This document shows, piece by piece, positions 3,072 through 60,159 of a stretch of DNA of 64,000 bases. The notes under the pieces are model-generated. The model did no database searches, had not been told where the DNA came from, and saw only the letters and a list, made by a program, of their open reading frames with translations. This DNA comes from Candidatus Omnitrophota bacterium. Its GTDB lineage: Bacteria > Omnitrophota > Gorgyraeia > DTHP01. The position numbers and the translations under genes were made by a program. Within the stretch, counting starts at the first letter, position 1. Each line of letters starts with the position of its first letter. The stretch lies in contig JAMWCW010000004.1 in NCBI GenBank assembly GCA_023819145.1, positions 9,935-73,934 on the forward strand, read 5' to 3'.

Positions 3072-6000
3072 ATGAAATTACCTGAATTTGGAGTTAAAAG
3101 ACCGGTTACAAACTTAATGATTTTTGCAGGAATAATTATTCTGGCAATCTACAGCTTATCACGTTTGGGAGTAGACCAGATGCCGGAGATTGAACCGCCA
3201 GTAATTAGTGTAATTTCTGCTTATCCGGGGGCAAGTCCTGAGGATGTAGAAATAAAAGTAACTGAACCTTTAGAAAATCAACTGGCTACAACCCCAGGAA
3301 TAGAAAAAATCACTTCCATTTCTGCAGAAGGAGTTTCTGTAATTACTCTTAAATTTGCCTGGGGAACTAATCTTGATAACGCTTCAAATGACATTCGCGA
3401 CCGTATTGAATTAGCGAAACGTTCCCTACCGGATATACCAGACGAGATGGAAAACCCTTTTATCTTTAAGTTCAATACTGCAATGATGCCTATTCTGTTT
3501 GTAGGAATTACCGCTCAGCAAAATTATGCTGAACTTTTTGATTTAATCGATAAACAGATTGCTGACCCCATTAGGCAAATTCCGGGTATAGGAACGGTAC
3601 AATTATTTGGAGGTTTGGAAAGACAGATTAATGTCTGGATAGATAGAGGTCGTTTAGAAGGATATGGGTTTTCTATTTTGCATATTTTAGATGCATTAAG
3701 GAAGGAAAACATAACTCAACCCGTAGGAAATTTAAAATCAGGTTTAACCAGTTATCTCGTAAGACTCCCCGGAGAATTTTCTTCTCCCGAGGAGTTAAAC
3801 TCTGTAATTTTAGGAAAAAGGGGAAATAGAACAATATACTTAAGAGATGTGGCAAGAGTGGAAGACAGCTTTAAAGAAATAACCCTTGAGGCAAGAATAA
3901 ATAAGAATCGGGGTATGATGATGATGGTCCAGAAACAAACAGGGACCAACACTGTAGAAGTGGCGAAGAGGGCGAAAAATCTCTTGAGCGAATTAGAAAA
4001 GAAATTGCCTAAGGATATAAAGATAAATACGGTTTTTGACAGTTCTCAGGATATCATAAATTCTCTAAATTCCCTAAAAAGTTCTCTTTTGAGGGGCATA
4101 TTTTTTGTAATTTTGGTAGTCTGGTTTTTTTTAAGACAGTTCAGAACCAGTTTGATTATTGCTTTGACTATTCCCTTCTCCTTACTAATTTCTTTCATCT
4201 ATCTTTTTTTGCAGGGAAGAACTATCAATATCATAAGTCTATCTTCCTTAGCTATTGCTTCTGGGATGGTAGTGGATAACGCCATTGTGGTTGTGGACAA
4301 TATTTGGAGACATATAGAAAGAGGTGAACGTTTGCGTGAGGCAGCAATTTTTGGTACCCAGGAAATGTTTCTGGCAATCATTGCTTCCACCTTTACTACC
4401 ATCGCCGTATTTTTACCTTTCTTTTTTATACGCGGAATAATCGGAATTATGTTTGGGGAATTGGCAATGGTGGTTACTATAACTTTATTTGCCTCGCTGT
4501 TTACTGCTTCTACCTTTAGCCCCATGTTATGTTCAAAATTATTAAAAGAAAAACAAACAACCGGAACACAAAAGAAAGGGTTAAGTAAACTCTACGAATT
4601 CTCAGAGAAAGGCCTCAAATCTTTAGAAAATTTATATTCTCAAATACTTTTATCAAGTCTCAGACATAAAAAATTAATTATTTTTTGTTTCTCTTTCTTA
4701 TTCATTTCAAGCCTTTTTCTTCTGCGCTTTTTAGGTAATGAATTCATCCCTGAACAGGACACAGGAGATGTGCGGGCTACCATTCGTCTTCCACTAGGCA
4801 CACGTTTTGAGGAAACAAGAAAAATTGCTTTAAGGATAGAAGAAATCTTAGAAAAAAATGTCCCCGAAAAAAGAGTTATGTTTGTAAGACCAGGAACAAC
4901 CACGAGTATGGGGAGAGCTTTTAGAGCGTCGGGGGAATCAGGAGAAAATATAATCGTTGCCGGAGCAAAACTCGTTCCCAAAACAGAAAGAACACGCTCG
5001 GTTTTTGAAATTGGACAGGTTTTGAGAAAAGAAATTGGTAAAATCCCCGGCGTGTTAAGAATAGATATTTCTACTGGTAATCCCATGGGAAGAATGATTA
5101 CCGGAATGGGGGGAAAGGCAATTCAGGTAGAAATTGTAGGACACTCTTTTGAAACGACAAATACCTTAGCGGAGAAATTGAAAAATATAATTGAGAAAAT
5201 TCCCGGAGCAGTGGATATCAGTATTTCGCGTGAAATAAGCCAACCTGAATTGAGGATTGCCGTAGATAGAGAAAAAGCCTCTATTTTAGGTTTAAATATG
5301 CAGACGATTGCTTCTTCGTTAAAGGCTTACATTGAAGGTTCTACTGCAACAAAGTATCGCGAAAAGGGTGAGACTTACGATATCTATGTGAGATTGGAAG
5401 AAGCTTCACGCACAAAGATAGAAGACATTGAGAATCTATCTGTTGTTGCTCCTCTAACCGGAAACCTCGTAAAGCTGGCTAATTTTGCAAAGGTTTACGA
5501 AACCACAGGACCTGTAGATATTGAAAGAACCAACCGAGAGAGGGTAGTAAAAGTTGAATGTAACGTCTTTGGAAGACCAGTAGGAAAGGTTAGGGAAGAT
5601 ATCGAACAAAACTTGAAACAGTTGGTTATACCTTCAGATATAAGAATTAACTTTGGAGGAGAAGCTGAGGAGCAGATGAAGGCCTTTAAAGATTTAACAA
5701 TTCTGCTAATCTTAGGCATTATTCTTGTCTATATGATTATGGCGGGACAATTTGAGTCTCTCCTCGATCCCTTTGTAGTAATGTTTAGTGTTCCTTTTAC
5801 TTTCTCGGGGGTGTTCTTAGGGCTTTTTCTTACCAAAACAACCCTTAATGTTATTTCCTTCATGGGTATAATAATGCTTATGGGAATAGTAGTAAATAAT
5901 GCTATAGTTTTAATCAGTTATATAAATATATTGCGCGCCAGGGGACTGGTTATGTATGAAGCAGTAGCGCAAGCAGGAAAAGAAAGATTAAGGCCAGTGT

Positions 6001-6200
6001 TTATGACTACTTTTACTACGCTGGCTGGTCTTTTTCCTATGGCTTTTCTAAAAGGAGAAGGTTCAGAAGTATGGCAACCTCTGGGTATAACCATGATTAG
6101 CGGATTAACTGTTTCCACTTTTATCACCCTTATTTTTGTACCTACACTCTATACAGCCCTAGAAACGAGGGTTAAGCAAAGGAGAGAAAGGCGCTTATGA
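3072..6200 (+). CDS. RND family efflux transporter permease (AcrB/CzcA-like)
   Basis: 1042 aa; 12-TM RND architecture with two large periplasmic loops; conserved segments such as AIASGMVVDNAIVVVDNI and MLMGIVVNNAIVLISY. Confidence 0.9.
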   Translation: MKLPEFGVKRPVTNLMIFAGIIILAIYSLSRLGVDQMPEIEPPVISVISAYPGASPEDVEIKVTEPLENQLATTPGIEKITSISAEGVSVITLKFAWGTNLDNASNDIRDRIELAKRSLPDIPDEMENPFIFKFNTAMMPILFVGITAQQNYAELFDLIDKQIADPIRQIPGIGTVQLFGGLERQINVWIDRGRLEGYGFSILHILDALRKENITQPVGNLKSGLTSYLVRLPGEFSSPEELNSVILGKRGNRTIYLRDVARVEDSFKEITLEARINKNRGMMMMVQKQTGTNTVEVAKRAKNLLSELEKKLPKDIKINTVFDSSQDIINSLNSLKSSLLRGIFFVILVVWFFLRQFRTSLIIALTIPFSLLISFIYLFLQGRTINIISLSSLAIASGMVVDNAIVVVDNIWRHIERGERLREAAIFGTQEMFLAIIASTFTTIAVFLPFFFIRGIIGIMFGELAMVVTITLFASLFTASTFSPMLCSKLLKEKQTTGTQKKGLSKLYEFSEKGLKSLENLYSQILLSSLRHKKLIIFCFSFLFISSLFLLRFLGNEFIPEQDTGDVRATIRLPLGTRFEETRKIALRIEEILEKNVPEKRVMFVRPGTTTSMGRAFRASGESGENIIVAGAKLVPKTERTRSVFEIGQVLRKEIGKIPGVLRIDISTGNPMGRMITGMGGKAIQVEIVGHSFETTNTLAEKLKNIIEKIPGAVDISISREISQPELRIAVDREKASILGLNMQTIASSLKAYIEGSTATKYREKGETYDIYVRLEEASRTKIEDIENLSVVAPLTGNLVKLANFAKVYETTGPVDIERTNRERVVKVECNVFGRPVGKVREDIEQNLKQLVIPSDIRINFGGEAEEQMKAFKDLTILLILGIILVYMIMAGQFESLLDPFVVMFSVPFTFSGVFLGLFLTKTTLNVISFMGIIMLMGIVVNNAIVLISYINILRARGLVMYEAVAQAGKERLRPVFMTTFTTLAGLFPMAFLKGEGSEVWQPLGITMISGLTVSTFITLIFVPTLYTALETRVKQRRERRL

Positions 6201-6487
6201 AAATGGTAATGATTGTCTATAATGAAGCAATAGAGGAAATGGTGATGGAAATTATGGTAAAATGTGGCTTAAAAAATTACACAAAAATTGCCGGGGTATA
6301 TGGAAAGGGAACATCTTCAGGAACGCACTTAGGAAACGATATCTGGCCAGGAAGAAATAATCTTTTATACGTCGCCTGTGAAGAAAAAGAAAAGAATGAA
6401 ATGGTTTGTTGCATTAAAGAATTGAGAAAGAGATTTGGATACGAAGGGGTAAAGGCATTTGTTCTTCCGGTAGAGGAAATAACTTAA
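6197..6487 (+). CDS. PII-like small protein (nitrogen-regulatory PII fold, T-loop-like GVYGKGTSSGTHLGND), translationally coupled to the RND pump
   Basis: 96 aa; ATGA start/stop overlap with the RND gene; predicted beta-alpha-beta pattern and a glycine-rich loop resembling the PII T-loop; PII-like proteins (DUF3240-type) are known to ride in RND metal-efflux operons. Confidence 0.4.
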   Translation: MKMVMIVYNEAIEEMVMEIMVKCGLKNYTKIAGVYGKGTSSGTHLGNDIWPGRNNLLYVACEEKEKNEMVCCIKELRKRFGYEGVKAFVLPVEEIT

Positions 6488-6488
6488 A

Positions 6489-7010
6489 ATGATTCTTATA
6501 AAACTATTTTTTACTTTTCTTAAAATTGGACTATTTACTATTGGAAGTGGCTATTCAATGCTTGTGCTTGCGCAGAAATATATAGTAGACACCTACCAAT
6601 GGTTGACGATGGAGGAATTTACAGACTTAGTGGCTATTGCCGAATTAACCCCCGGCCCAATTATCATAAATTTAGCTACCTTTGTAGGAACAAGGGTTGC
6701 CGGGTTGAAAGGAGCCATTCTTTCCACCGTCGGACTTATTATCATCCCTTTTGGATTTTTATTTATTATTGCCAGCAAGTATTTACAGCTTAAAAACTTT
6801 CCTTTTATGCAAAATTTTCTTAATGTCATTAGGCCCATTGCCATAGCGCTTATTACCATTGCCATCATAAATCTTTTTAAAACATCAATTACCAACCTCA
6901 AAACTTTCTTAATTGCAATCATAGCGATTGTCCTCTTGCAATTTTTTAAAGTTAATCCTATATTTATAGTAATTGGAGGATTAATTATTTCCCTTATTTT
7001 TAAAGTATGA
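6489..7010 (+). CDS. chrA: Chromate transporter family protein, short single-domain type (ChrA-like)
   Basis: 173 aa, about 5 TM; N-terminal FLKIGLFTIGSGYSMLVL...WLTMEEFTDLVAIAELTPGPIIINLATFVG matches the CHR family signature. Confidence 0.7.
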   Translation: MILIKLFFTFLKIGLFTIGSGYSMLVLAQKYIVDTYQWLTMEEFTDLVAIAELTPGPIIINLATFVGTRVAGLKGAILSTVGLIIIPFGFLFIIASKYLQLKNFPFMQNFLNVIRPIAIALITIAIINLFKTSITNLKTFLIAIIAIVLLQFFKVNPIFIVIGGLIISLIFKV

Positions 7011-7927
7011 GGATACTAACACGCCTACTCTTGAAATTATTTGTAAAAGATTACGGAGATTTTCATAATCCGGGAGTAAGGGCAAAATATGGCTATCTGG
7101 AATCAGTAACGAGTATCATCGTTAATCTAATTCTTTCGCTGGCCAAATTCTTACTTGGTATCCTTTCTAACAGTATCGCCCTTATCGCCGATTCTTTCCA
7201 TACCTTTTCCGATGTGATCACCTCGGTTATTGTATGGGTAGGATTCAAAGCTTCGCAACGCCCTGCAGATAGTGAACACCCTTTTGGTCATGGGAGAATA
7301 GAATTTATTTCTACCTTAATCATCGGAGTTTTACTGTTATTTGCAGGATTTAATTTCTTAAAAGACTCTTTCCTGCGTATATTAAATCCCCAAGCAGTAA
7401 AAGCAGGCCTTGGAACCATTATTTTTCTTGTTATTTCTGCGTATCTAAAAGAAGAATTGGCAGTATTTGCTACAGAATTAGGGGAGAAGATAAAAGGTGA
7501 TTCCTTACTTGCTGATGCCTGGCATCATCGCACTGATGCCATCGCTTCTTTATTGATAATTTTATCGATCATCGCCTCAAAATTTGGTTACTTCATTGTT
7601 GACGCTTTTTTAGGGTTAATAATCTCTTTAGTAATAATTTGGCTGGGAATAAAATTTGTTCATAAATCTTCAAATAAATTAATAGGTCATGCTCCCAATA
7701 AAGAAATTTTATATAAAATTCAAAGTGAGGCATATAAAATTAAAGGGGTAAAGAACATCCATGACATAGAGATTCATGAATATGGAGAAGAATTAAGAAT
7801 ATCCTTACATATCAAAGTAAAATCCCGACTCCGTGTAGACTCTGCCCACCAAATAGCAGAAGCAGTAGAGCAAAGGTTGAAAGAGAACTTGGGAATTTCT
7901 GCAGTAGTCCACGTCGACCCCCTATAA
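7007..7927 (+). CDS. Cation diffusion facilitator (CDF) family transporter
   Basis: 306 aa; TM domain with HTFSDVITS...SEHPFGHGRIE and C-terminal cytoplasmic dimerisation domain; ATGA overlap with the upstream gene. Confidence 0.85.
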   Translation: MRILTRLLLKLFVKDYGDFHNPGVRAKYGYLESVTSIIVNLILSLAKFLLGILSNSIALIADSFHTFSDVITSVIVWVGFKASQRPADSEHPFGHGRIEFISTLIIGVLLLFAGFNFLKDSFLRILNPQAVKAGLGTIIFLVISAYLKEELAVFATELGEKIKGDSLLADAWHHRTDAIASLLIILSIIASKFGYFIVDAFLGLIISLVIIWLGIKFVHKSSNKLIGHAPNKEILYKIQSEAYKIKGVKNIHDIEIHEYGEELRISLHIKVKSRLRVDSAHQIAEAVEQRLKENLGISAVVHVDPL

Positions 7928-42799: not shown

Positions 42800-43198
42800 A
42801 TGAAGAAAAAGGGGATAGTCGTTTGTTTTTTGTTCGCATTTATTTTTATTTCAGGATGCGCGAAGAAGAAAGAAGAAATTAGAATCTTTGAGCCTGAGGA
42901 ATTTGAATCCGAAACCAAAGAAATCGAAACTATAAAAATAGTTCCTCCCGAAATAAGCACCTCACCATCTCCTACTCCTGAGGAGGAGAAAATATTACAT
43001 AACCAAAAGATACAGAGGGCCTTAAAAATCAGCGGTTTCTACACTGGAGAAATTGACGGGAAAATTGGTCCTAAGACACGTGAAGCTATTCGTAAGTTCC
43101 AAGCAGCGAGAGGACTAAAGGTAGATGGTATAGTTGGACCTAAAACATGGCAAGAATTAGAGAAGGTTCTTGTCTCTCAACCCTCATCTTCTCAGTAA
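42800..43198 (+). CDS. Lipoprotein with a C-terminal peptidoglycan-binding domain (PG_binding_1)
   Basis: 132 aa; lipobox FISGC; Pro/Glu-rich linker; LKISGFYTGEIDGKIGPKTREAIRKFQAARGLKVDGIVGPKTW, the classic PG-binding repeat. Confidence 0.8.
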   Translation: MKKKGIVVCFLFAFIFISGCAKKKEEIRIFEPEEFESETKEIETIKIVPPEISTSPSPTPEEEKILHNQKIQRALKISGFYTGEIDGKIGPKTREAIRKFQAARGLKVDGIVGPKTWQELEKVLVSQPSSSQ

Positions 43199-44601
43199 TC
43201 TAACTGTTCATAGGAATAAAACTTTCTTGTTATTGAGGGACGATAAGATAATTTTGTCTTTCTTATATTCTCTAAACCCGAATCATCCATAGTATTGATA
43301 AACTTAAAATTCTTTAACCTTCTGCAGAATTCAGAAAACATATATTGAGCAATTCCCTTAAATCTAAAATCTACCACTTCCGCAAATATGCAAAAATTAT
43401 CCTGATCTAAAGGGTACCCAAAGCTGTACCCTTTAATTTCACCTCCTATTTCCAATACAATACCTTCCAAATCTAATAATTCATAATCAGATAATAATCG
43501 ACGTTGGGCAAAGAAATTATCTTCGATAAGCAAACGGTAATGTTCAGATTTATATTTCTTCAACCTATCTCCTGTCCACAATTCATATAGTTTAAGACAC
43601 TCACTACCGTCTTTAGAAGTGAGTTCTCTAATTTTCGCAGGGTAGTTCTTATGAAAATAATTATAAGCACAACGCTGGGATTTAAAACCATCACCTTTTA
43701 GCTCTGCAATTTTTAAACTCTCATATATGTATTCTAAATTCACGCATTTTAATTTGAAATTATTCTGTTTAAAGAAATCAGAATAATGAACGGTAACGTT
43801 ATCTATTCTCATATTTTTTCCCAAAAAACTTTTACCAAAATTGATGGCTTGAGGAGAAATTGTTTTACCAAGAGGAGGCAAAATAAGAAAAGAACTTTCT
43901 CCTTGCTTACAAAATACTAAAAGATTATTATCCACTACCTCCCAAAGTAAATAAGCAATGTTTCTCCAGCTATATAAATATTCAAAAGCGTAACTAAAAT
44001 TTTTCCCATCTTCTGTTAAGAATTTATTAAAGAGTTCCTTGTCTTTTAAAGAAATCATTTTTAAATTTGTTTCTTTACCAAAAATTTTAGAGCTAATTTT
44101 ATCTAGGATACCAAAAGTAAAAAAATTTGTATTATAATCCATTATTAATCCTGGATTTTGGTAAACTGTTTCGAAATTTTCTTCATTTTCTAAAATAGAT
44201 TTCAGTCTTTTGGCAAAGTTAAGAAAAATATTCATATCTTTATCTCTTAAATATGGACATTGCAAATCTATCCCTAAGTGAACCTCTGTATAATCTTCGT
44301 TGTAAAATAAAACAAAAGGATACAACCTACAATCTAATGGTCTTTCATTATAGATTAAACATTTTTTCTGATTAGAATTAAAAAATGGACAGACATAAAA
44401 GTTTCTATTTTTGATACCTCTTAAATTAATGCCATAAGAATTAATAAAAGAAGGTAAAAATTTATAGCATTTATATTTATCAATCTCTCCTTTAAGTATA
44501 AAAGGAGCCCATGGACTAAATTCGTCTATAAAACGACAGCAGACTTCGCATTTTAGGCAGATTTCTTGGGGAATAAATTGAGGAATAAAGAAAGTTTCCA
44601 T
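43192..44601 (-). CDS. Fusion protein: N-terminal CxxCxxCC (YkgJ/FliB-like Zn/Fe-chelating) domain + C-terminal DUF2156 (MprF aminoacyl-PG synthase C-terminal-like, GNAT fold) domain
   Basis: 469 aa; N-terminus CLKCEVCCRF...VCPFF...KCLIYNERPLDCRLYPF matches PF03692; C-terminal ...YAFEYLYSWRNIAYLLWEVVDNNLLVF...ILPPLG... and ...IGGEIKGYSFGYPLDQDNFCIFAEVVDFRFKGIAQYMFSEF resembles DUF2156/LPG_synthase_C. Confidence 0.5.
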   Translation of the reverse strand: METFFIPQFIPQEICLKCEVCCRFIDEFSPWAPFILKGEIDKYKCYKFLPSFINSYGINLRGIKNRNFYVCPFFNSNQKKCLIYNERPLDCRLYPFVLFYNEDYTEVHLGIDLQCPYLRDKDMNIFLNFAKRLKSILENEENFETVYQNPGLIMDYNTNFFTFGILDKISSKIFGKETNLKMISLKDKELFNKFLTEDGKNFSYAFEYLYSWRNIAYLLWEVVDNNLLVFCKQGESSFLILPPLGKTISPQAINFGKSFLGKNMRIDNVTVHYSDFFKQNNFKLKCVNLEYIYESLKIAELKGDGFKSQRCAYNYFHKNYPAKIRELTSKDGSECLKLYELWTGDRLKKYKSEHYRLLIEDNFFAQRRLLSDYELLDLEGIVLEIGGEIKGYSFGYPLDQDNFCIFAEVVDFRFKGIAQYMFSEFCRRLKNFKFINTMDDSGLENIRKTKLSYRPSITRKFYSYEQLDY

Positions 44602-44691
44602 ATAATATGTCTCATTACTTACTCTTTACAAGATATTTTATATATTATAAAATTAAATACAGAAGTTTTTCCATCTAAAAATTGCTTAAAT

Positions 44692-45747
44692 ATGAAACAG
44701 GATATAAAAAATTTAACTATTGAGGAATTGGTAAACTATCTATCCTTAAAAGGAGAAAAAACCTACCATGCTAAACAGATTGCTACTTGGATATACAAAA
44801 AGGATTTATACGATTTCACTAAGATGACCGATATATCTCTACAACTAAGAGAGAAGTTGATAAGCGATTTTTATATTGGGAAAATAAACTTAACCGAAGA
44901 AAAGATTTCGGAAATCGACTCTACGCGAAAATTTCTTTTTCAATTGAAAGACAACCGTCTAATCGAATCCGTACTTATCCCTAACATTAACCGCCTCACT
45001 GCCTGCATATCCACACAAATAGGGTGTAAATTTGGTTGTGTATTTTGTCTAAGCGGAGCAAGGGGTTTTATCCGTAATCTTTGTACCGGAGAAATTGTAA
45101 ATCAACTACAATCAATTATCTATATTTTAAAAAATAGCAATAACTTACAAAAAGGAATTCTAAATCAAAGGGTTAATAATGTAGTGTTTATGGGGATGGG
45201 AGAACCTTTAGATAACTATAAAAATGTAATCAAAGCAATCAAAATTATCAACCATCCTTATGGTTTAAATATTGGCGCAAGAAAAATCACTATTTCGACA
45301 TGCGGTTTACCTGAGGAAATAAAAAAACTCAGTCAGGAAAATATCCAGGTGGAACTATCTATTTCTCTTCACGCACCAACCGATAGCCTACGGAATAGAT
45401 TAATGCCTATAAATAAAAAATTCTCCCTTAAGGAATTAATTCCTATCTGTAGAAAATATTCTCTGGATACGAAGCGCATAGTTACCTTTGAATATGTGCT
45501 AATAAAAGACGTAAATGATAGTAGAGAAAATTTAGAAGAATTGATAAAATTATTACAAGGTTTTAAATGGAAGGTAAATCTGATAATCTATAATCCTTCT
45601 AGAAAAATGAAATTTCAACCATCTTCTATGGAAAGAGCAATTTTGTTCCAAAAGGGATTAAAAATCGCTGGCATAATCGCTACCATAAGACAGTCTAAAG
45701 GAGAAGACATAGGAGCGGCTTGCGGACAACTTGCTCTAAGAATATAA
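44692..45747 (+). CDS. rlmN: 23S rRNA (adenine2503-C2)-methyltransferase RlmN (radical SAM)
   Basis: STQIGCKFGCVFCLSG (CxxxCxxC) ...VVFMGMGEPLDN...; start at ATG 44692 (the ORF-track start 44566 would overlap the divergent gene). Confidence 0.9.
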   Translation: MKQDIKNLTIEELVNYLSLKGEKTYHAKQIATWIYKKDLYDFTKMTDISLQLREKLISDFYIGKINLTEEKISEIDSTRKFLFQLKDNRLIESVLIPNINRLTACISTQIGCKFGCVFCLSGARGFIRNLCTGEIVNQLQSIIYILKNSNNLQKGILNQRVNNVVFMGMGEPLDNYKNVIKAIKIINHPYGLNIGARKITISTCGLPEEIKKLSQENIQVELSISLHAPTDSLRNRLMPINKKFSLKELIPICRKYSLDTKRIVTFEYVLIKDVNDSRENLEELIKLLQGFKWKVNLIIYNPSRKMKFQPSSMERAILFQKGLKIAGIIATIRQSKGEDIGAACGQLALRI

Positions 45748-45751
45748 AAAC

Positions 45752-47536
45752 ATGAAGAGAAAAATTATAATACCTATTATAATCGCATTACTATTACTAG
45801 GAGGGTGTCTCCCAAATCAGAAAACCACCAAAGAGTTAAAAAAGTGCCATACCGCAGATAAATTTATTCTACAAAATGGATTAACTATCGTCGCTAAAAA
45901 AACACACCATTATAATTTAATAAGCATAGAGCTACTTGTCAAAACAGGCTCAGCACGAGAAAGAGGCTATTTAGGCACAGGAATTTCTCATTTCTTAGAA
46001 CATCTTATCTTTAAAGGAACTGAAAACTATACGACAGGAGAAATTGCCCGAAAGATAAAACTTCTGGGAGGGGAAATAAATGGTTTTACCAGCCATGATT
46101 ATACTTCCTTTTGTATAACTGTCCCCAAAAACAATGTAGAAGAAGCACTAAACATTTTAATCAATTCGGTTTTAAAACCACAACTGAAGGAAGAAGATTT
46201 TGAAAAAGAACGTCAAGTAATATTAAAAGAAATGCTTATTGAAGAAGATGATCCTCAGCGGAAACTCTATCGGTTATTCTGGAACAACTTTTATCAAGCT
46301 CATCCCTACAAACATCCAATCATCGGTTATCCAGAATTGTTTTCACAATTAACTTTAGAAGACATCGTCACTTACCACAAGAGAAATTATATCCCCAATA
46401 ACATTATTCTCAGTATCGCTGGAGATTTTGAAAATAGTTTTATTGAAAATGTAAGAAGGAAACTCTCCGAAATAGAAAGGGCTAAGGAAATAGAGCCTGT
46501 AAATATAACTGAACATTTCCATCTATCTCCTTACGACTATGAGGAAGAATACCCTACAAAACTAATGCATCTTATACTGGGGTTCCCCGGAATAGAAATT
46601 AATCATCCCGACCTTTACGCATTGGACCTATTAGCTACTATTCTTGGAGGAGGAAGAAGCTCGCGCTTATATGACAGAATGAAAATTAAGGAAAATCTTG
46701 CCTATACTATTTCTTGCTTTAATCACACTCCTAAGGAAAAAGGAATATTAGGAATATATGTAACTGGAGAATACAAAAACAAAGAAAAAATTATTGAACA
46801 TGTGTTGGAAGAAATAGAAAAGATTAAAAAACAAACCATTTCCTACCGTGAGCTTAATAAAGCGAAGAACATATTATTAAACCAATTTTATCTTGCCCAC
46901 GAAACAGTAGAGGATCAAGCACACCAGCTAGCAATTGGAGAATTATTTACAGGCCAACCGGAATTCTATTCTTTCTACATAGAAAAAATTAAAAAAGTTA
47001 GCCCACAAGAGTTAAAAATAATCACATATAAATATCTACTTAGAGATAGTTTGGTGGTTGTTTCTCTGAAACCCTCAGGAAATTATGAACATAGAGATAA
47101 AAATCAAAAAACTAACGAAGATATCGGAAATATAGAAAAAATTAATCTTAAGAACGGATTAACTCTGTTGATTAAAGAAGAACATTTTTCCCCCACTATC
47201 TATATCAACGCAGTTTTTCTAGGAGGATTGAGATTAGAGAGTAAAGAAAATAATGGAATTTTTAATCTTTTAGCAAATCTTCTTCTGAAAGGAACAAATA
47301 ATAAAACTGCAGAAGAAATTAATCGCCTTATAGAAGAAAATGGGGGGAGTTTAGAAACCTTCAGTGGGATAAATAGTATAGGCATATCTATAAATATTAA
47401 TAGTAAAAACATCCGCAAGGGAATTCGCTTGCTTTCAGAAATAATTAAATATGCAAATTTTCCAGAAAAGGAATTGGAAAAAGAAAAGAAACAAATACTA
47501 GCAAGAATAAAAGAGAGAGAGAAGAAGACCCTGTGA
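45752..47536 (+). CDS. M16 family zinc peptidase (pitrilysin/PqqL-like): first M16 pair plus the N-domain of a second pair; apparently truncated by a frameshift
   Basis: 594 aa; signal peptide/lipobox LLGGC; HFLEHLIFKGT (HxxEH) ...EREQVILKEMLIEEDDPQ...; a second unit starts about 47100; the stop lies inside an AAAGAGAGAGAGAAGAAG run. Confidence 0.8.
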   Translation: MKRKIIIPIIIALLLLGGCLPNQKTTKELKKCHTADKFILQNGLTIVAKKTHHYNLISIELLVKTGSARERGYLGTGISHFLEHLIFKGTENYTTGEIARKIKLLGGEINGFTSHDYTSFCITVPKNNVEEALNILINSVLKPQLKEEDFEKERQVILKEMLIEEDDPQRKLYRLFWNNFYQAHPYKHPIIGYPELFSQLTLEDIVTYHKRNYIPNNIILSIAGDFENSFIENVRRKLSEIERAKEIEPVNITEHFHLSPYDYEEEYPTKLMHLILGFPGIEINHPDLYALDLLATILGGGRSSRLYDRMKIKENLAYTISCFNHTPKEKGILGIYVTGEYKNKEKIIEHVLEEIEKIKKQTISYRELNKAKNILLNQFYLAHETVEDQAHQLAIGELFTGQPEFYSFYIEKIKKVSPQELKIITYKYLLRDSLVVVSLKPSGNYEHRDKNQKTNEDIGNIEKINLKNGLTLLIKEEHFSPTIYINAVFLGGLRLESKENNGIFNLLANLLLKGTNNKTAEEINRLIEENGGSLETFSGINSIGISININSKNIRKGIRLLSEIIKYANFPEKELEKEKKQILARIKEREKKTL

Positions 47537-48363
47537 TGTACGCAATTAAACTTGTTAAACATACTCTCTTCACTACTCATCCATACGGCATGGATGTCTT
47601 AGGAGAGAAAGAAACCATCGAAAAGATTAAAAGAGAAGATATTGTTAACTTATACCATAAAATATTTAATCCTAAAAACTGTGTAATTGCTATCTGGGGA
47701 GACTTTAACAAAAAAGATGTATTAAAAGAACTTAAAAGTTGTTTCTCCCGTTGGAAACCAGCAGAGAATTTCCTTGCATTAAAAAGCACAAAAGAATCTC
47801 CTATAGATAAACCTCAAATAAAAAAAGAAATAACAGAGAAAAAACAAGCGATAGTTGCTTTAGGTTTCCAAACCGTTTCAATCTATGACCCACACAAATT
47901 TGTCTTTGAAGTCCTGGAAAACATGTTGAGCGGATTGGGAAATAGACTGTCTGAAAAAATTAGAGAAAATTTTGGTCTGGTTTATTTTGTTGATGCTTAC
48001 AATACTACAGGACTGGATACAGGATATTTCATTATAATAGCTTCTACCGATAAAAGTAACTCAGAAAGGGTAAAAGAATTAATTTTTGAAGAAATTGAGA
48101 AAATTAAAAATTCTGGTTTTTCTAATGAGGAATTGGTTCGTTCTAAGGCATATCTAATCGGCAGAAAAAATAGATCATTACAGACCAAAAAAAATTCTGC
48201 TCTTATTAGTTCATTACATGAAATCTATGGACTGGGATTTGATTATTACAAAGACTACGAAGAAAAAATAGGATTGGTATCACAAAAGGAAATAAATAGT
48301 ATTTTAGAAACATATTTCAAAGATAATAATTATGTACTAGTTGAGTTATTACCAAAGGATTAG
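47533..48363 (+). CDS. M16 peptidase C-terminal portion (likely the continuation of the upstream M16 gene after a -1 frameshift)
   Basis: 276 aa; VMYAIKLVKHTLFTTHPYGMDVLGEKETIEKIKREDIVNLYHKIF is the mid-domain motif of an M16 unit. The same frame read upstream through the (AG)n run gives ...REREEDPVMYAIK..., an EEDP motif like the first unit's EEDDPQ. Confidence 0.75.
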   Translation: MMYAIKLVKHTLFTTHPYGMDVLGEKETIEKIKREDIVNLYHKIFNPKNCVIAIWGDFNKKDVLKELKSCFSRWKPAENFLALKSTKESPIDKPQIKKEITEKKQAIVALGFQTVSIYDPHKFVFEVLENMLSGLGNRLSEKIRENFGLVYFVDAYNTTGLDTGYFIIIASTDKSNSERVKELIFEEIEKIKNSGFSNEELVRSKAYLIGRKNRSLQTKKNSALISSLHEIYGLGFDYYKDYEEKIGLVSQKEINSILETYFKDNNYVLVELLPKD

Positions 48364-49226: not shown

Positions 49227-49567
49227 TGGAAAACGAAGGAAAAAAAATAGACAGTGATTGGAAAGAACAGGTAGAAAAAGAGAAACATCAATATTCTGAG
49301 CATCAAAATGATCAGTCTTCGGCAGCGAATTTCAACTTTTTTATCACTAGCCTCGCGATGCAGGCAATGATAGCAATGGGAGAAATAGAAAACCCCGTTA
49401 CAAATAGAAAAGAGAAGGACCTTAATCAAGCAAAATATCTTATTGACATCCTGGGAATACTTAAAGAAAAAACAGAGAATAATCTTAATGAAGAAGAGAA
49501 CAACTTGCTGGATAATCTCTTATATCAGTTAAGAACAACCTTTATAAAAATTTCCAATAAAAAATGA
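49226..49567 (+). CDS. DUF1844 domain-containing protein
   Basis: 113 aa; FFITSLAMQAMIAMGEIENPVTNRKEKDLNQAKYLIDILGIL matches the DUF1844 core. Confidence 0.6.
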   Translation: MENEGKKIDSDWKEQVEKEKHQYSEHQNDQSSAANFNFFITSLAMQAMIAMGEIENPVTNRKEKDLNQAKYLIDILGILKEKTENNLNEEENNLLDNLLYQLRTTFIKISNKK

Positions 49568-50529
49568 AATATTTTATCCCTTTGCTAAGAATATTGGTAA
49601 GTATTTTTTTTATTGTCGTACTTATATTTATTATGCGTAATAAACTGCATGAATTATCAGTTTATTTAAAACAGACGAAGGCAACATACTTTCTATATGC
49701 GGTATTGTTATTTCTGTTTATCATTGTAATCCTTTCCATTAGGCTAAAGAAAATAATGGAATTTCAAGAACTATCTCTTCCGCTAAGTAACGTTGTATAT
49801 CTAAGCCTCATCGGATTCTTCTTCAATAACTTTCTTCCCACTTCTGTAGCAGGGGACTTTGTTAAAGCCTACTACACTGCACGATATACCAATAGAACGA
49901 TGGAATCTTATACCTCCATTATTGTAGACCGTATTTTTGGCATTTTTGCCTTCGTATTCATAACAGTTATAGCTTTGTTCTTGGCAGATAGAAATATAAA
50001 AAAACCCATAGTAACCAATTCTATAGTAAGCCTTGTTATAATTTCTCTTTGCTTAATATTGGTATTATCAAACGACAATTTTACAAAGCGTTTACATAAA
50101 CTCTTAGAAAAAATAAAACTTCTCACAATAAGCAGTACATTACAGCATTTTTTCAAAACTGTAAGCAGATACAATAAGAATTATAGAATCATATTTTTTG
50201 CATTCTATACTTCTGTGCTTTCCCAAATTATATCTACTTTAGTAGTAGCCATCCTTGCCAAAGGATTGTCTATAGAAATACCTCTGATGTTGTTATTCTT
50301 GACATTGCCTATAATTACTACTGTAAGCATGCTACCTTCTCTCAATGGCCTAGGGATTAGAGAAAGTGCTTATGTATTTTTATTAGGAAATTATATAGGA
50401 AAAGAAAAGGCATTTGCTCTATCTATTCTTTGGTTGGGGATAATACTTTTAGTAAGTTTTTTTGGAGGAATAGCTTATTTATTCAAAGATTTTCTTTTAA
50501 ATAAAAAAGGGGAAGTTAATGTTAGATAA
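49564..50529 (+). CDS. Lysylphosphatidylglycerol synthase TM-region family protein (UPF0104/flippase-like)
   Basis: 321 aa, about 8 TM; N-terminal basic-then-TM pattern (LLRILVSIFFIVVLIF...), central SVAGDFVKAYY... typical of PF03706 members. Confidence 0.6.
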   Translation: MKYFIPLLRILVSIFFIVVLIFIMRNKLHELSVYLKQTKATYFLYAVLLFLFIIVILSIRLKKIMEFQELSLPLSNVVYLSLIGFFFNNFLPTSVAGDFVKAYYTARYTNRTMESYTSIIVDRIFGIFAFVFITVIALFLADRNIKKPIVTNSIVSLVIISLCLILVLSNDNFTKRLHKLLEKIKLLTISSTLQHFFKTVSRYNKNYRIIFFAFYTSVLSQIISTLVVAILAKGLSIEIPLMLLFLTLPIITTVSMLPSLNGLGIRESAYVFLLGNYIGKEKAFALSILWLGIILLVSFFGGIAYLFKDFLLNKKGEVNVR

Positions 50530-50674
50530 AAGATTACTCGAGATACTTGCTTGTCCTTCTTGCAAGGGAGATTTAGAATTAGAAGGAGAAAAAATTGTCT
50601 GTAAAAAATGCAATTTAAAATATCCTATCAGAAACGGAATACCTATAATGTTAATTGAAGAAGCAGAGAAATAG
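50519..50674 (+). CDS. Trm112 family protein (UPF0434/YcaR-like), 51 aa; not in the supplied ORF track
   Basis: MLDKRLLEILACPSCKGDLELEGEKIVCKKCNLKYPIRNGIPIMLIEEAEK: CPxCKG...C..C..YPI.dGIP.ML is the Trm112 signature; overlaps the upstream gene by 11 bp; followed by GGAGGAGG RBS of aroQ. Confidence 0.6.
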   Translation: MLDKRLLEILACPSCKGDLELEGEKIVCKKCNLKYPIRNGIPIMLIEEAEK

Positions 50675-60088: not shown

Positions 60089-60159
60089 GCGGGTGTAATT
60101 CAATGGCAGAATGACAGCTTCCCAAGCTGTATATGGCGGTTCAATTCCGCTCACCCGCT
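60089..60159 (+). tRNA. tRNA-Gly (anticodon CCC)
   Basis: Cloverleaf: acceptor GCGGGTG/CACCCGC, D-arm, anticodon stem ACAGC/GCTGT with loop TTCCCAA (CCC), T-arm GGCGG-TTCAATT-CCGCT, discriminator T; no encoded CCA. Confidence 0.8.

Follow-up and report, generated by a model that had tools for sequence, protein, structure and literature searches.

Locus and product of a two-domain gene

The window analysed here comprises 64,000 nucleotides from a Candidatus Omnitrophota bacterium (assembly GCA_023819145.1, contig JAMWCW010000004.1, positions 9,935 to 73,934 of the forward strand), and contains a minus-strand gene whose product joins an N-terminal cysteine-cluster domain of the YkgJ/FliB type to a C-terminal DUF2156 domain (Table 1). 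Pfam search assigned residues 15–101 to PF03692 (CxxCxxCC; E-value 1.1e-7, 32.8 bits against a cut-off of 23) and residues 203–462 to PF09924 (LPG_synthase_C; E-value 1.1e-21, 77.6 bits against a cut-off of 27.5), the latter covering positions 10–296 of the 298-position profile. Both domains named in an initial annotation of this DNA were thus recovered, together with the motifs that it had quoted, namely CLKCEVCC (residues 15–22), CPFF (residues 71–74) and CLIYNERPLDCRLYPF (residues 81–96). An identical protein (P0001) from a Candidatus Omnitrophica metagenome-assembled genome is deposited at NCBI under the automatic name [quoted passage not shown]. Among 37 aligned homologs, PF09924 is present in all 37 and PF03692 in 35, which, together with the identical deposited protein, excludes an artefact of gene calling or assembly.

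The fusion protein is soluble and has no membrane anchor: no transmembrane segment was detected, the maximum Kyte-Doolittle(19) value being 1.0. Scans of the protein against NCBIfam, PHROGs and PADLOC gave zero matches, and a promoter and terminator scan around the gene yielded counts not above those of shuffled sequence. At its 5′ end the fusion gene is overlapped by the RlmN open reading frame (ORF) (44566–45747, plus strand) with its listed TTG start; the TIGR00048 match, however, starts only with the ATG at position 44692, so that the actual intergenic region between these divergent genes is about 44602–44691.

Table 1. Coordinates of the fusion gene, its parts and the adjacent gene in the window.
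Feature	Position	Strand	Basis
Fusion gene, PF03692 + PF09924	43192..44601	-	ORF call, 469 aa, ATG start
N-terminal domain, aa 1-178, YkgJ/PF03692-type cysteine cluster plus conserved helical extension	44068..44601	-	
CxxCxxCC motif CLKCEVCC, aa 15-22	44536..44559	-	position from sequence, cysteines from alignments
Second cysteine set, aa 71-117: C71 (CPFF), C81 and C91 (CxIYxxRPLDCRLYP), C115 (CPY)	44251..44391	-	
C-terminal tandem-GNAT domain, aa 181-466, BT_3689/2HQY-type DUF2156	43204..44061	-	
Conserved basic helix between GNAT I and GNAT II, aa 301-320, LKGDGFKSQRCAYNYFHKNY	43642..43701	-	
Strand 4 to helix 3 loop of GNAT II, aa 412-419, FRFKGIAQ, GNAT motif A-like	43345..43368	-	
C-terminal signature INTMDDSGLENIRKTKLSYRPS, aa 435-456	43234..43299	-	
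Neighbouring PG_binding_1 lipoprotein gene, possible lineage-specific associate	42800..43198	+	PF01471 E 2.7e-19

Cysteine cluster, fold and subfamily of the two modules

Residue conservation was read from two alignments, one of the 37 homologs and one of 20 sequences. Eight cysteines of the N-terminal domain show full or almost full conservation: C15, C18, C21, C22, C71, C81, C91 and C115. The downstream set (C71, C81, C91 and C115) is invariant in both alignments; of the CxxCxxCC set, C18, C21 and C22 are invariant and C15 nearly invariant in the 37 homologs, and all four are invariant in the 20 sequences. The residues R23, R87, Y94 and P95 are likewise invariant, and the domain reaches to about residue 178 via conserved helices. 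The PF03692 score above the gathering threshold, the CxxCxxCC motif and the conserved downstream cysteines together place the domain in the YkgJ/FliB family, for which no solved structure was found for comparison. Salmonella FliB, the one relative in this family that has been characterised, carries an N-terminal CX4CX3CC motif, likened by its authors to the CX2CX2CC of PF03692, has eight conserved cysteines, binds a [4Fe-4S] cluster and methylates the lysines of flagellin (PMC8598068). The phage protein DpdM, a homolog of YkgJ, is a proposed preQ1 methyltransferase (bioRxiv 10.1101/2023.04.13.536721). By analogy, the eight cysteines of the window protein most likely hold a [4Fe-4S] cluster, possibly in addition to a second metal site.

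The AlphaFold2 model of the full-length protein has a mean predicted local distance difference test score (pLDDT) of 92.5 and a predicted template modelling score (pTM) of 0.92. In this model the C-terminal domain is predicted with high confidence to be a tandem GNAT that matches the known DUF2156 structures, in line with the fold initially expected. Its subfamily is another matter. Search of the PDB with the profile of the 37 homologs gave a sole match, 2hqy_A, which covers the whole C-terminal domain at an E-value of 2.2e-46, and returned no MprF chain at an E-value of up to 10. The matched structure is that of BT_3689 from Bacteroides thetaiotaomicron, a stand-alone DUF2156 protein of 305 residues. 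Structural similarity search using Foldseek also ranked 2HQY at the top (E-value 1e-23, TM-score of 0.85–0.87), followed by the synthase domains of MprF with E-values of about 1e-10 and TM-scores of about 0.6. The domain hence belongs to the BT_3689/2HQY branch of DUF2156, to which MprF is related at the fold level only, and not to the MprF synthase type to which it had at first been assigned.

Further analysis of the C-terminal domain revealed three conserved elements. The basic helix, which comprises residues 304–319 in the model and sits between GNAT I and GNAT II, is preceded by or contains the invariant residues L301, G303, R310 and N314, in addition to positions 307 and 318 that are lysine or arginine in 37 of 37 homologs. 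[quoted passage not shown] It is also present in 2HQY, so the helix does not discriminate between donors. The second element is the motif A-like loop of GNAT II, flanked in the model by the strand 402–410 and the helix 417–428, in which G416 is present in 37, a small residue (A, S or G) at position 418 in 35, and a lysine or arginine at position 413 in 22 of the 37 homologs. The third, the C-terminal signature, has invariant N436, K450 and P455, and M438, D440, L443 and Y453 that are at least 90% conserved; this signature is common to 2HQY.

A clade of Omnitrophota (P0035, P0039, P0042 and others; loci L007, L042 and L062) encodes shorter fusion proteins of about 406–420 residues. From the first GNAT repeat of these proteins some 50–60 residues are missing, in the LPPLG...RIEN region, whereas the N-terminal domain and GNAT II are intact.

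Distribution, pairing and genomic neighbours

The combination of PF03692 and DUF2156 is not rare. The first homolog search gave 401 protein clusters, relatives are encoded in at least 576 species-representative genomes, and 1353 of 1.84 billion representative sequences matched at an E-value of up to 1e-30. The best 80 loci encode full-length fusions and belong to Omnitrophota, Poribacteria, Nitrospirota (including Nitrospira defluvii), “Planctomycetia” and TA06, and among the best 150 representatives, fusions of about 400–560 residues are mixed with stand-alone DUF2156 proteins of about 296–303 residues. For five of these stand-alone proteins (P0114, P0181, P0187, P0260 and P0235) the upstream gene was inspected, and in all five a PF03692 gene lies directly upstream; these partner genes code for 141–176 residues and either overlap the DUF2156 gene or end 1–3 nt before it. 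The five pairs sit in differing genomic contexts, and the same split arrangement is found at the loci L036 and L038. Being fused in some lineages and encoded by adjacent, overlapping genes in others, the two modules are strongly indicated to act together, and a fixed interface between them would be in keeping with the high pTM of the model of the whole protein. Each domain family is already known and the fusions stand in databases under automatic names; as initially supposed, the fusion itself is undescribed in the literature searched.

Stand-alone DUF2156 genes also occur in other settings. On a 594-kb plasmid of Microvirga ossetica (L096), two such genes of about 306–310 codons (3980–4912 and 5867–6787) lie 1 kb apart on opposite strands, near genes for a DEAD/DEAH helicase and an IS630 transposase.

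The surroundings of the fusion gene were screened for recurrent neighbours in about 90 loci by simple ORF calling and clustering; as loci of one lineage share ancestry, the resulting counts are higher than independent loci would give. No partner gene conserved across phyla was found in the clustered loci, and the neighbourhoods are lineage-specific. In the window, the convergent gene that overlaps the fusion gene by 7 nt encodes a 132-residue PG_binding_1 protein with a lipobox-like FISGC motif, which agrees with the peptidoglycan-binding lipoprotein initially described as abutting the fusion gene tail to tail. Its supposed functional link to the fusion is borne out in part. Of 34 loci from Omnitrophota or “Planctomycetia”, 15 have a PG_binding_1 homolog no more than three genes from the fusion. 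At least four arrangements occur, and the fusion proteins linked to it are only about 33% identical to each other; no such neighbour was found in any of the 51 Nitrospirota and Poribacteria loci. The recurrence could stem from a genuine association specific to the lineage, or just from a syntenic block that has persisted. The behaviour of a UvrD-like gene is similar, and some Omnitrophota have an RlmN, PG_binding_1 or UvrD-like neighbour.

Other lineages have neighbours of their own. A hybrid sensor histidine kinase gene sits just downstream of the fusion gene and overlaps its 3′ end in 25 of 34 Nitrospira loci. In 19–27 of 34 Nitrospirota loci (L008, L084 and others; at about 6200–7900 on the minus strand), a conserved protein of about 530 residues is encoded divergently upstream; it has no Pfam match, and its best E-value in a PDB sequence search is 0.52. 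In Poribacteria, a DegT aminotransferase gene lies upstream in 14 of 17 loci and a gene similar to thiamin pyrophosphokinase downstream in 17 of 17.

One Omnitrophota clade presents an operon in which a tRNA_bind gene is followed by the N- and C-domains and then by a DEDDh-WYL exonuclease gene, with overlaps of 4 nt. The tRNA_bind product has 106 residues and is of the Trbp111/MetRS C-terminal type (PDB 1mkh at an E-value of 1e-30, Trbp111 at 2e-23); against TIGR00399 it scores 109.8 bits, where the cut-off is 116.65. Two candidate readings of this operon were rejected. The “RNase_T” neighbour is no clue to tRNA processing, as it proved to be a DnaQ/PolC-type DEDDh exonuclease with a WYL domain; and the 723-residue “tRNA_bind” ORF of L044 is not MetRS, as an upstream ORF reads in frame into the small tRNA-binding gene. 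At both L044 (5724–7895) and L054 (22–1482) the Trbp111-type gene is in frame with the upstream ORF with no stop between, which gives the apparent 723-residue ORF.

The M16 peptidase gene of the window (45752–48363, plus strand) is split into two ORFs of 594 and 276 codons, the second with a GTG start, that overlap by 4 nt. In L001 and L010 it is a single ORF of 861–867 codons, and the split in the window stems either from a frameshift or pseudogenisation or from an error in the sequence.

Proposed function and comparison with known systems

Altogether, we propose, with a probability of about one half, that the fusion protein is a soluble cytoplasmic two-module enzyme in which a YkgJ/FliB-type domain and a tandem-GNAT transferase form an obligate pair. 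In the cytoplasm, GNAT II would take an acyl or aminoacyl group from an activated donor and pass it to an acceptor with an amine or hydroxyl group. Its required structural or redox-sensing partner would be the cysteine-cluster domain, which is predicted to sit tightly against the transferase (pTM 0.92) and would bind either Fe-S or zinc; that this domain is itself catalytic, as in FliB, is less likely. The initial annotation put forward a metal or redox role of the domain, which is plausible by analogy with FliB and with ATE1, the eukaryotic arginyl-tRNA-protein transferase.

The donor may well be acyl-CoA, a leaning that we hold loosely. We favor it because no aminoacyl-tRNA enzyme comes nearly as close to the window protein as 2HQY does, and because acetyl-CoA is reported in the active site of 2HQY, the sole close relative with a solved structure, while the sole DUF2156 protein studied genetically and reported as a homolog of BT_3689 behaves as a protein-lysine acetyltransferase (PMC10700544). 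This homolog is the product of the Helicobacter pylori DUF2156 gene hpb8_1270 (HPB8_1270), deletion of which lowers the lysine acetylation of RNase J (PMC10700544). The glycine loop at residues 413–418, which in sequence resembles GNAT motif A, would also speak for an acyl-CoA donor.

Several points weigh against the proposed assignment. The acetyl-CoA in 2HQY goes back to one statement in PMC10700544, and the evidence on acetylation in H. pylori is partial and was obtained in vivo only (PMC10700544). After 2HQY, the nearest structures are all aminoacyl-tRNA transferases; the most conserved motif of the C-terminal domain is the basic helix that reviews ascribe to these enzymes (PMC6103681); and in one clade a tRNA-binding gene of the Trbp111/MetRS-beta type overlaps the start of the module. 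As for the cysteines, sequence alone cannot tell Fe-S from zinc.

Some of these points lead to a tentative alternative, in which the donor is aminoacyl-tRNA, as for every biochemically characterised PF09924/Fem enzyme, and the N-terminal Fe-S domain gates or tunes the transferase in the manner of ATE1. The acceptor would then be soluble or peripheral (for example a protein, peptidoglycan precursor or metabolite) rather than phosphatidylglycerol handled by a dedicated flippase. Membership in PF09924 agrees with this, as do the retained basic residues K/R307, R310 and K/R318 of the helix regarded as the acceptor-stem binder (PMC6103681, PMC7334510), and the 106-residue tRNA-binding gene that in one Omnitrophota clade lies ahead of the module and frequently overlaps it by 4 nt. 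ATE1 itself sets the precedent of an N-terminal, cysteine-bound [4Fe-4S] cluster on a GNAT aminoacyl-tRNA transferase (bioRxiv 10.1101/2021.04.13.439645), and an enzyme that acts on a wall precursor in the manner of FemX would be in keeping with the PG_binding_1 neighbour of Omnitrophota. However, only one clade has the tRNA-binding neighbour, which lies inside a larger syntenic block and looks like a housekeeping beta subunit of MetRS. The sole tRNA gene of the window, tRNA-Gly at 60089, is far from the fusion gene, and no aminoacyl-tRNA synthetase is linked to it in the window. The retained motif A-like glycine loop argues against this donor too, as do the acetyl-CoA reported for the closest relative and the tie of the H. 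pylori homolog to lysine acetylation (PMC10700544), and the protein shows no homology to the ATE domains. With a probability below one half, the PF03692-DUF2156 proteins may make up a widespread, hitherto unrecognised class of Fe-S-dependent transferases in which the [4Fe-4S] domain gates or co-catalyses a tRNA-dependent transfer to a target yet to be discovered, be it a protein, a wall precursor or tRNA itself.

A bifunctional enzyme is improbable. The PF03692 domain would here be an Fe-S methyltransferase like FliB and DpdM, such that one protein both methylates and acylates the same class of amines, for example protein lysines. FliB is a [4Fe-4S] lysine methyltransferase with a related cysteine motif and the same number of conserved cysteines (PMC8598068), DpdM is proposed to act on preQ1 (bioRxiv 10.1101/2023.04.13.536721), and the DUF2156 protein of H. 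pylori affects protein-lysine acetylation (PMC10700544); the characterised relatives of both halves thus act on amines, two of the three on protein lysines. However, neither a motif for binding S-adenosylmethionine (SAM) nor a methyltransferase family was detected in the fusion protein with Pfam and NCBIfam, the N-terminal domain has only 178 residues, the likeness holds at the family level only, and no gene in the neighbourhoods points to SAM metabolism.

Least probable by far is the split, non-canonical MprF proposed in the initial annotation, in which the fusion protein would be the synthase half that aminoacylates a membrane lipid and a separate PF03706 protein would flip the product. The flippase-like gene exists as annotated (49564–50529, plus strand; PF03706 LPG_synthase_TM at an E-value of 6e-35, TIGR00374), which brings both MprF Pfam families within 5 kb, and the same arrangement recurs in L010 and L001. 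However, it lies 4963 bp from the fusion gene and on the opposite strand, with five unrelated genes between them, including those for RlmN, the M16 peptidase, Memo and DUF1844. It is part of its own co-directional run with Memo, DUF1844 and a 51-codon ORF for a YcaR/Trm112-like zinc ribbon. A survey of 8-kb flanks, using phmmer (E-value up to 1) and a three-sequence hidden Markov model (E-value up to 10, over 94 loci), found a PF03706 homolog only in the window, in L010 (fusion protein 64% identical) and in L001 and L002 (57%), that is, in the three closest relatives, and none in the remaining loci; in L003 (47%) it is already gone, with RlmN and the PG-binding gene kept. The synthase gene therefore has no conserved linkage to PF03706. 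Stand-alone PF03706 proteins, moreover, form a large flippase-like family with other partners (PMC5898192), the sequence search recovered no MprF synthase domain, and the fusion protein is soluble, with no transmembrane helix or obvious membrane anchor. On these grounds the split-MprF reading was rejected.

Beside this, the YcaR/Trm112-like ORF (50519–50674, plus strand) shares 11 nt with the end of the PF03706 gene, a pairing also seen in L001, which suggests that the two form a unit unrelated to the fusion gene.

The two-module enzyme proposed here bears on two large and poorly understood families. The pattern of fusion and fission across several phyla ties the YkgJ/FliB cysteine-cluster proteins to the stand-alone BT_3689-type DUF2156 proteins, and gives each family a testable functional partner. 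It also corrects the automatic name of the protein, which wrongly implies lipid lysinylation in Omnitrophota and Nitrospira. An acyl-CoA donor would make this a new Fe-S-linked acyltransferase, and an aminoacyl-tRNA donor would add a new bacterial, non-translational use of charged tRNA, possibly under redox control. In either case, the module occurs commonly in lineages of environmental importance, most of them uncultured, among them the nitrite-oxidising Nitrospira.

Compared to known systems, the C-terminal domain belongs with BT_3689 in one branch of DUF2156. They differ in that BT_3689 lacks a cysteine-cluster domain, and its Bacteroidales homologs have no PF03692 gene nearby; directly downstream of the BT_3689-like genes stands an Acetyltransf_9 GNAT gene instead. 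In Bacteroides finegoldii (L094, 3989–5936) and Parabacteroides distasonis (L095, 3986–5869), the DUF2156 gene is followed by an Acetyltransf_9-type GNAT gene of 320–338 codons; as the surroundings of the two loci otherwise differ, a different conserved two-gene unit is suggested.

With MprF (PDB 4V36, 4V34, 6LV0, 7DUW and 9J8Q) and other aminoacyl-phosphatidylglycerol synthases the protein has in common a C-terminal synthase domain of PF09924 that folds as a tandem GNAT, its two repeats separated by a basic helix. It differs in having no fused membrane or flippase domain (no PF03706 match in Pfam) and none of the 2–14 transmembrane helices of the integral-membrane part, in place of which it carries the cysteine-cluster domain. 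Because two defining features of MprF were looked for and are absent, the fusion protein lies outside the MprF family. As regards FemX, Pfam gave no FemAB match in the protein.

The N-terminal domain resembles the YkgJ/FliB family in the CxxCxxCC motif and the conserved downstream cysteines, eight in all as in FliB. By contrast, FliB and YkgJ have no GNAT fusion, and for the window protein Fe-S binding is predicted and methyl transfer hypothetical. In the fungal ErdS and ErgS, DUF2156 is fused to an aminoacyl-tRNA synthetase, a partner that in ErdS supplies the donor, whereas here DUF2156 is paired with a metal-cluster domain that is not known to take part in supplying the donor. The closest analogy in design is ATE1, in which an N-terminal, cysteine-bound [4Fe-4S] domain is likewise mounted on a GNAT-fold transferase (bioRxiv 10.1101/2021.04.13.439645). 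It is an analogy only, as Pfam detected no homology to ATE_N or ATE_C in the fusion protein. Should the Fe-S-gated, tRNA-dependent reading nevertheless hold, the ATE1 design would have its counterpart in bacteria, in these proteins from Omnitrophota, Nitrospirota, Poribacteria and related lineages.

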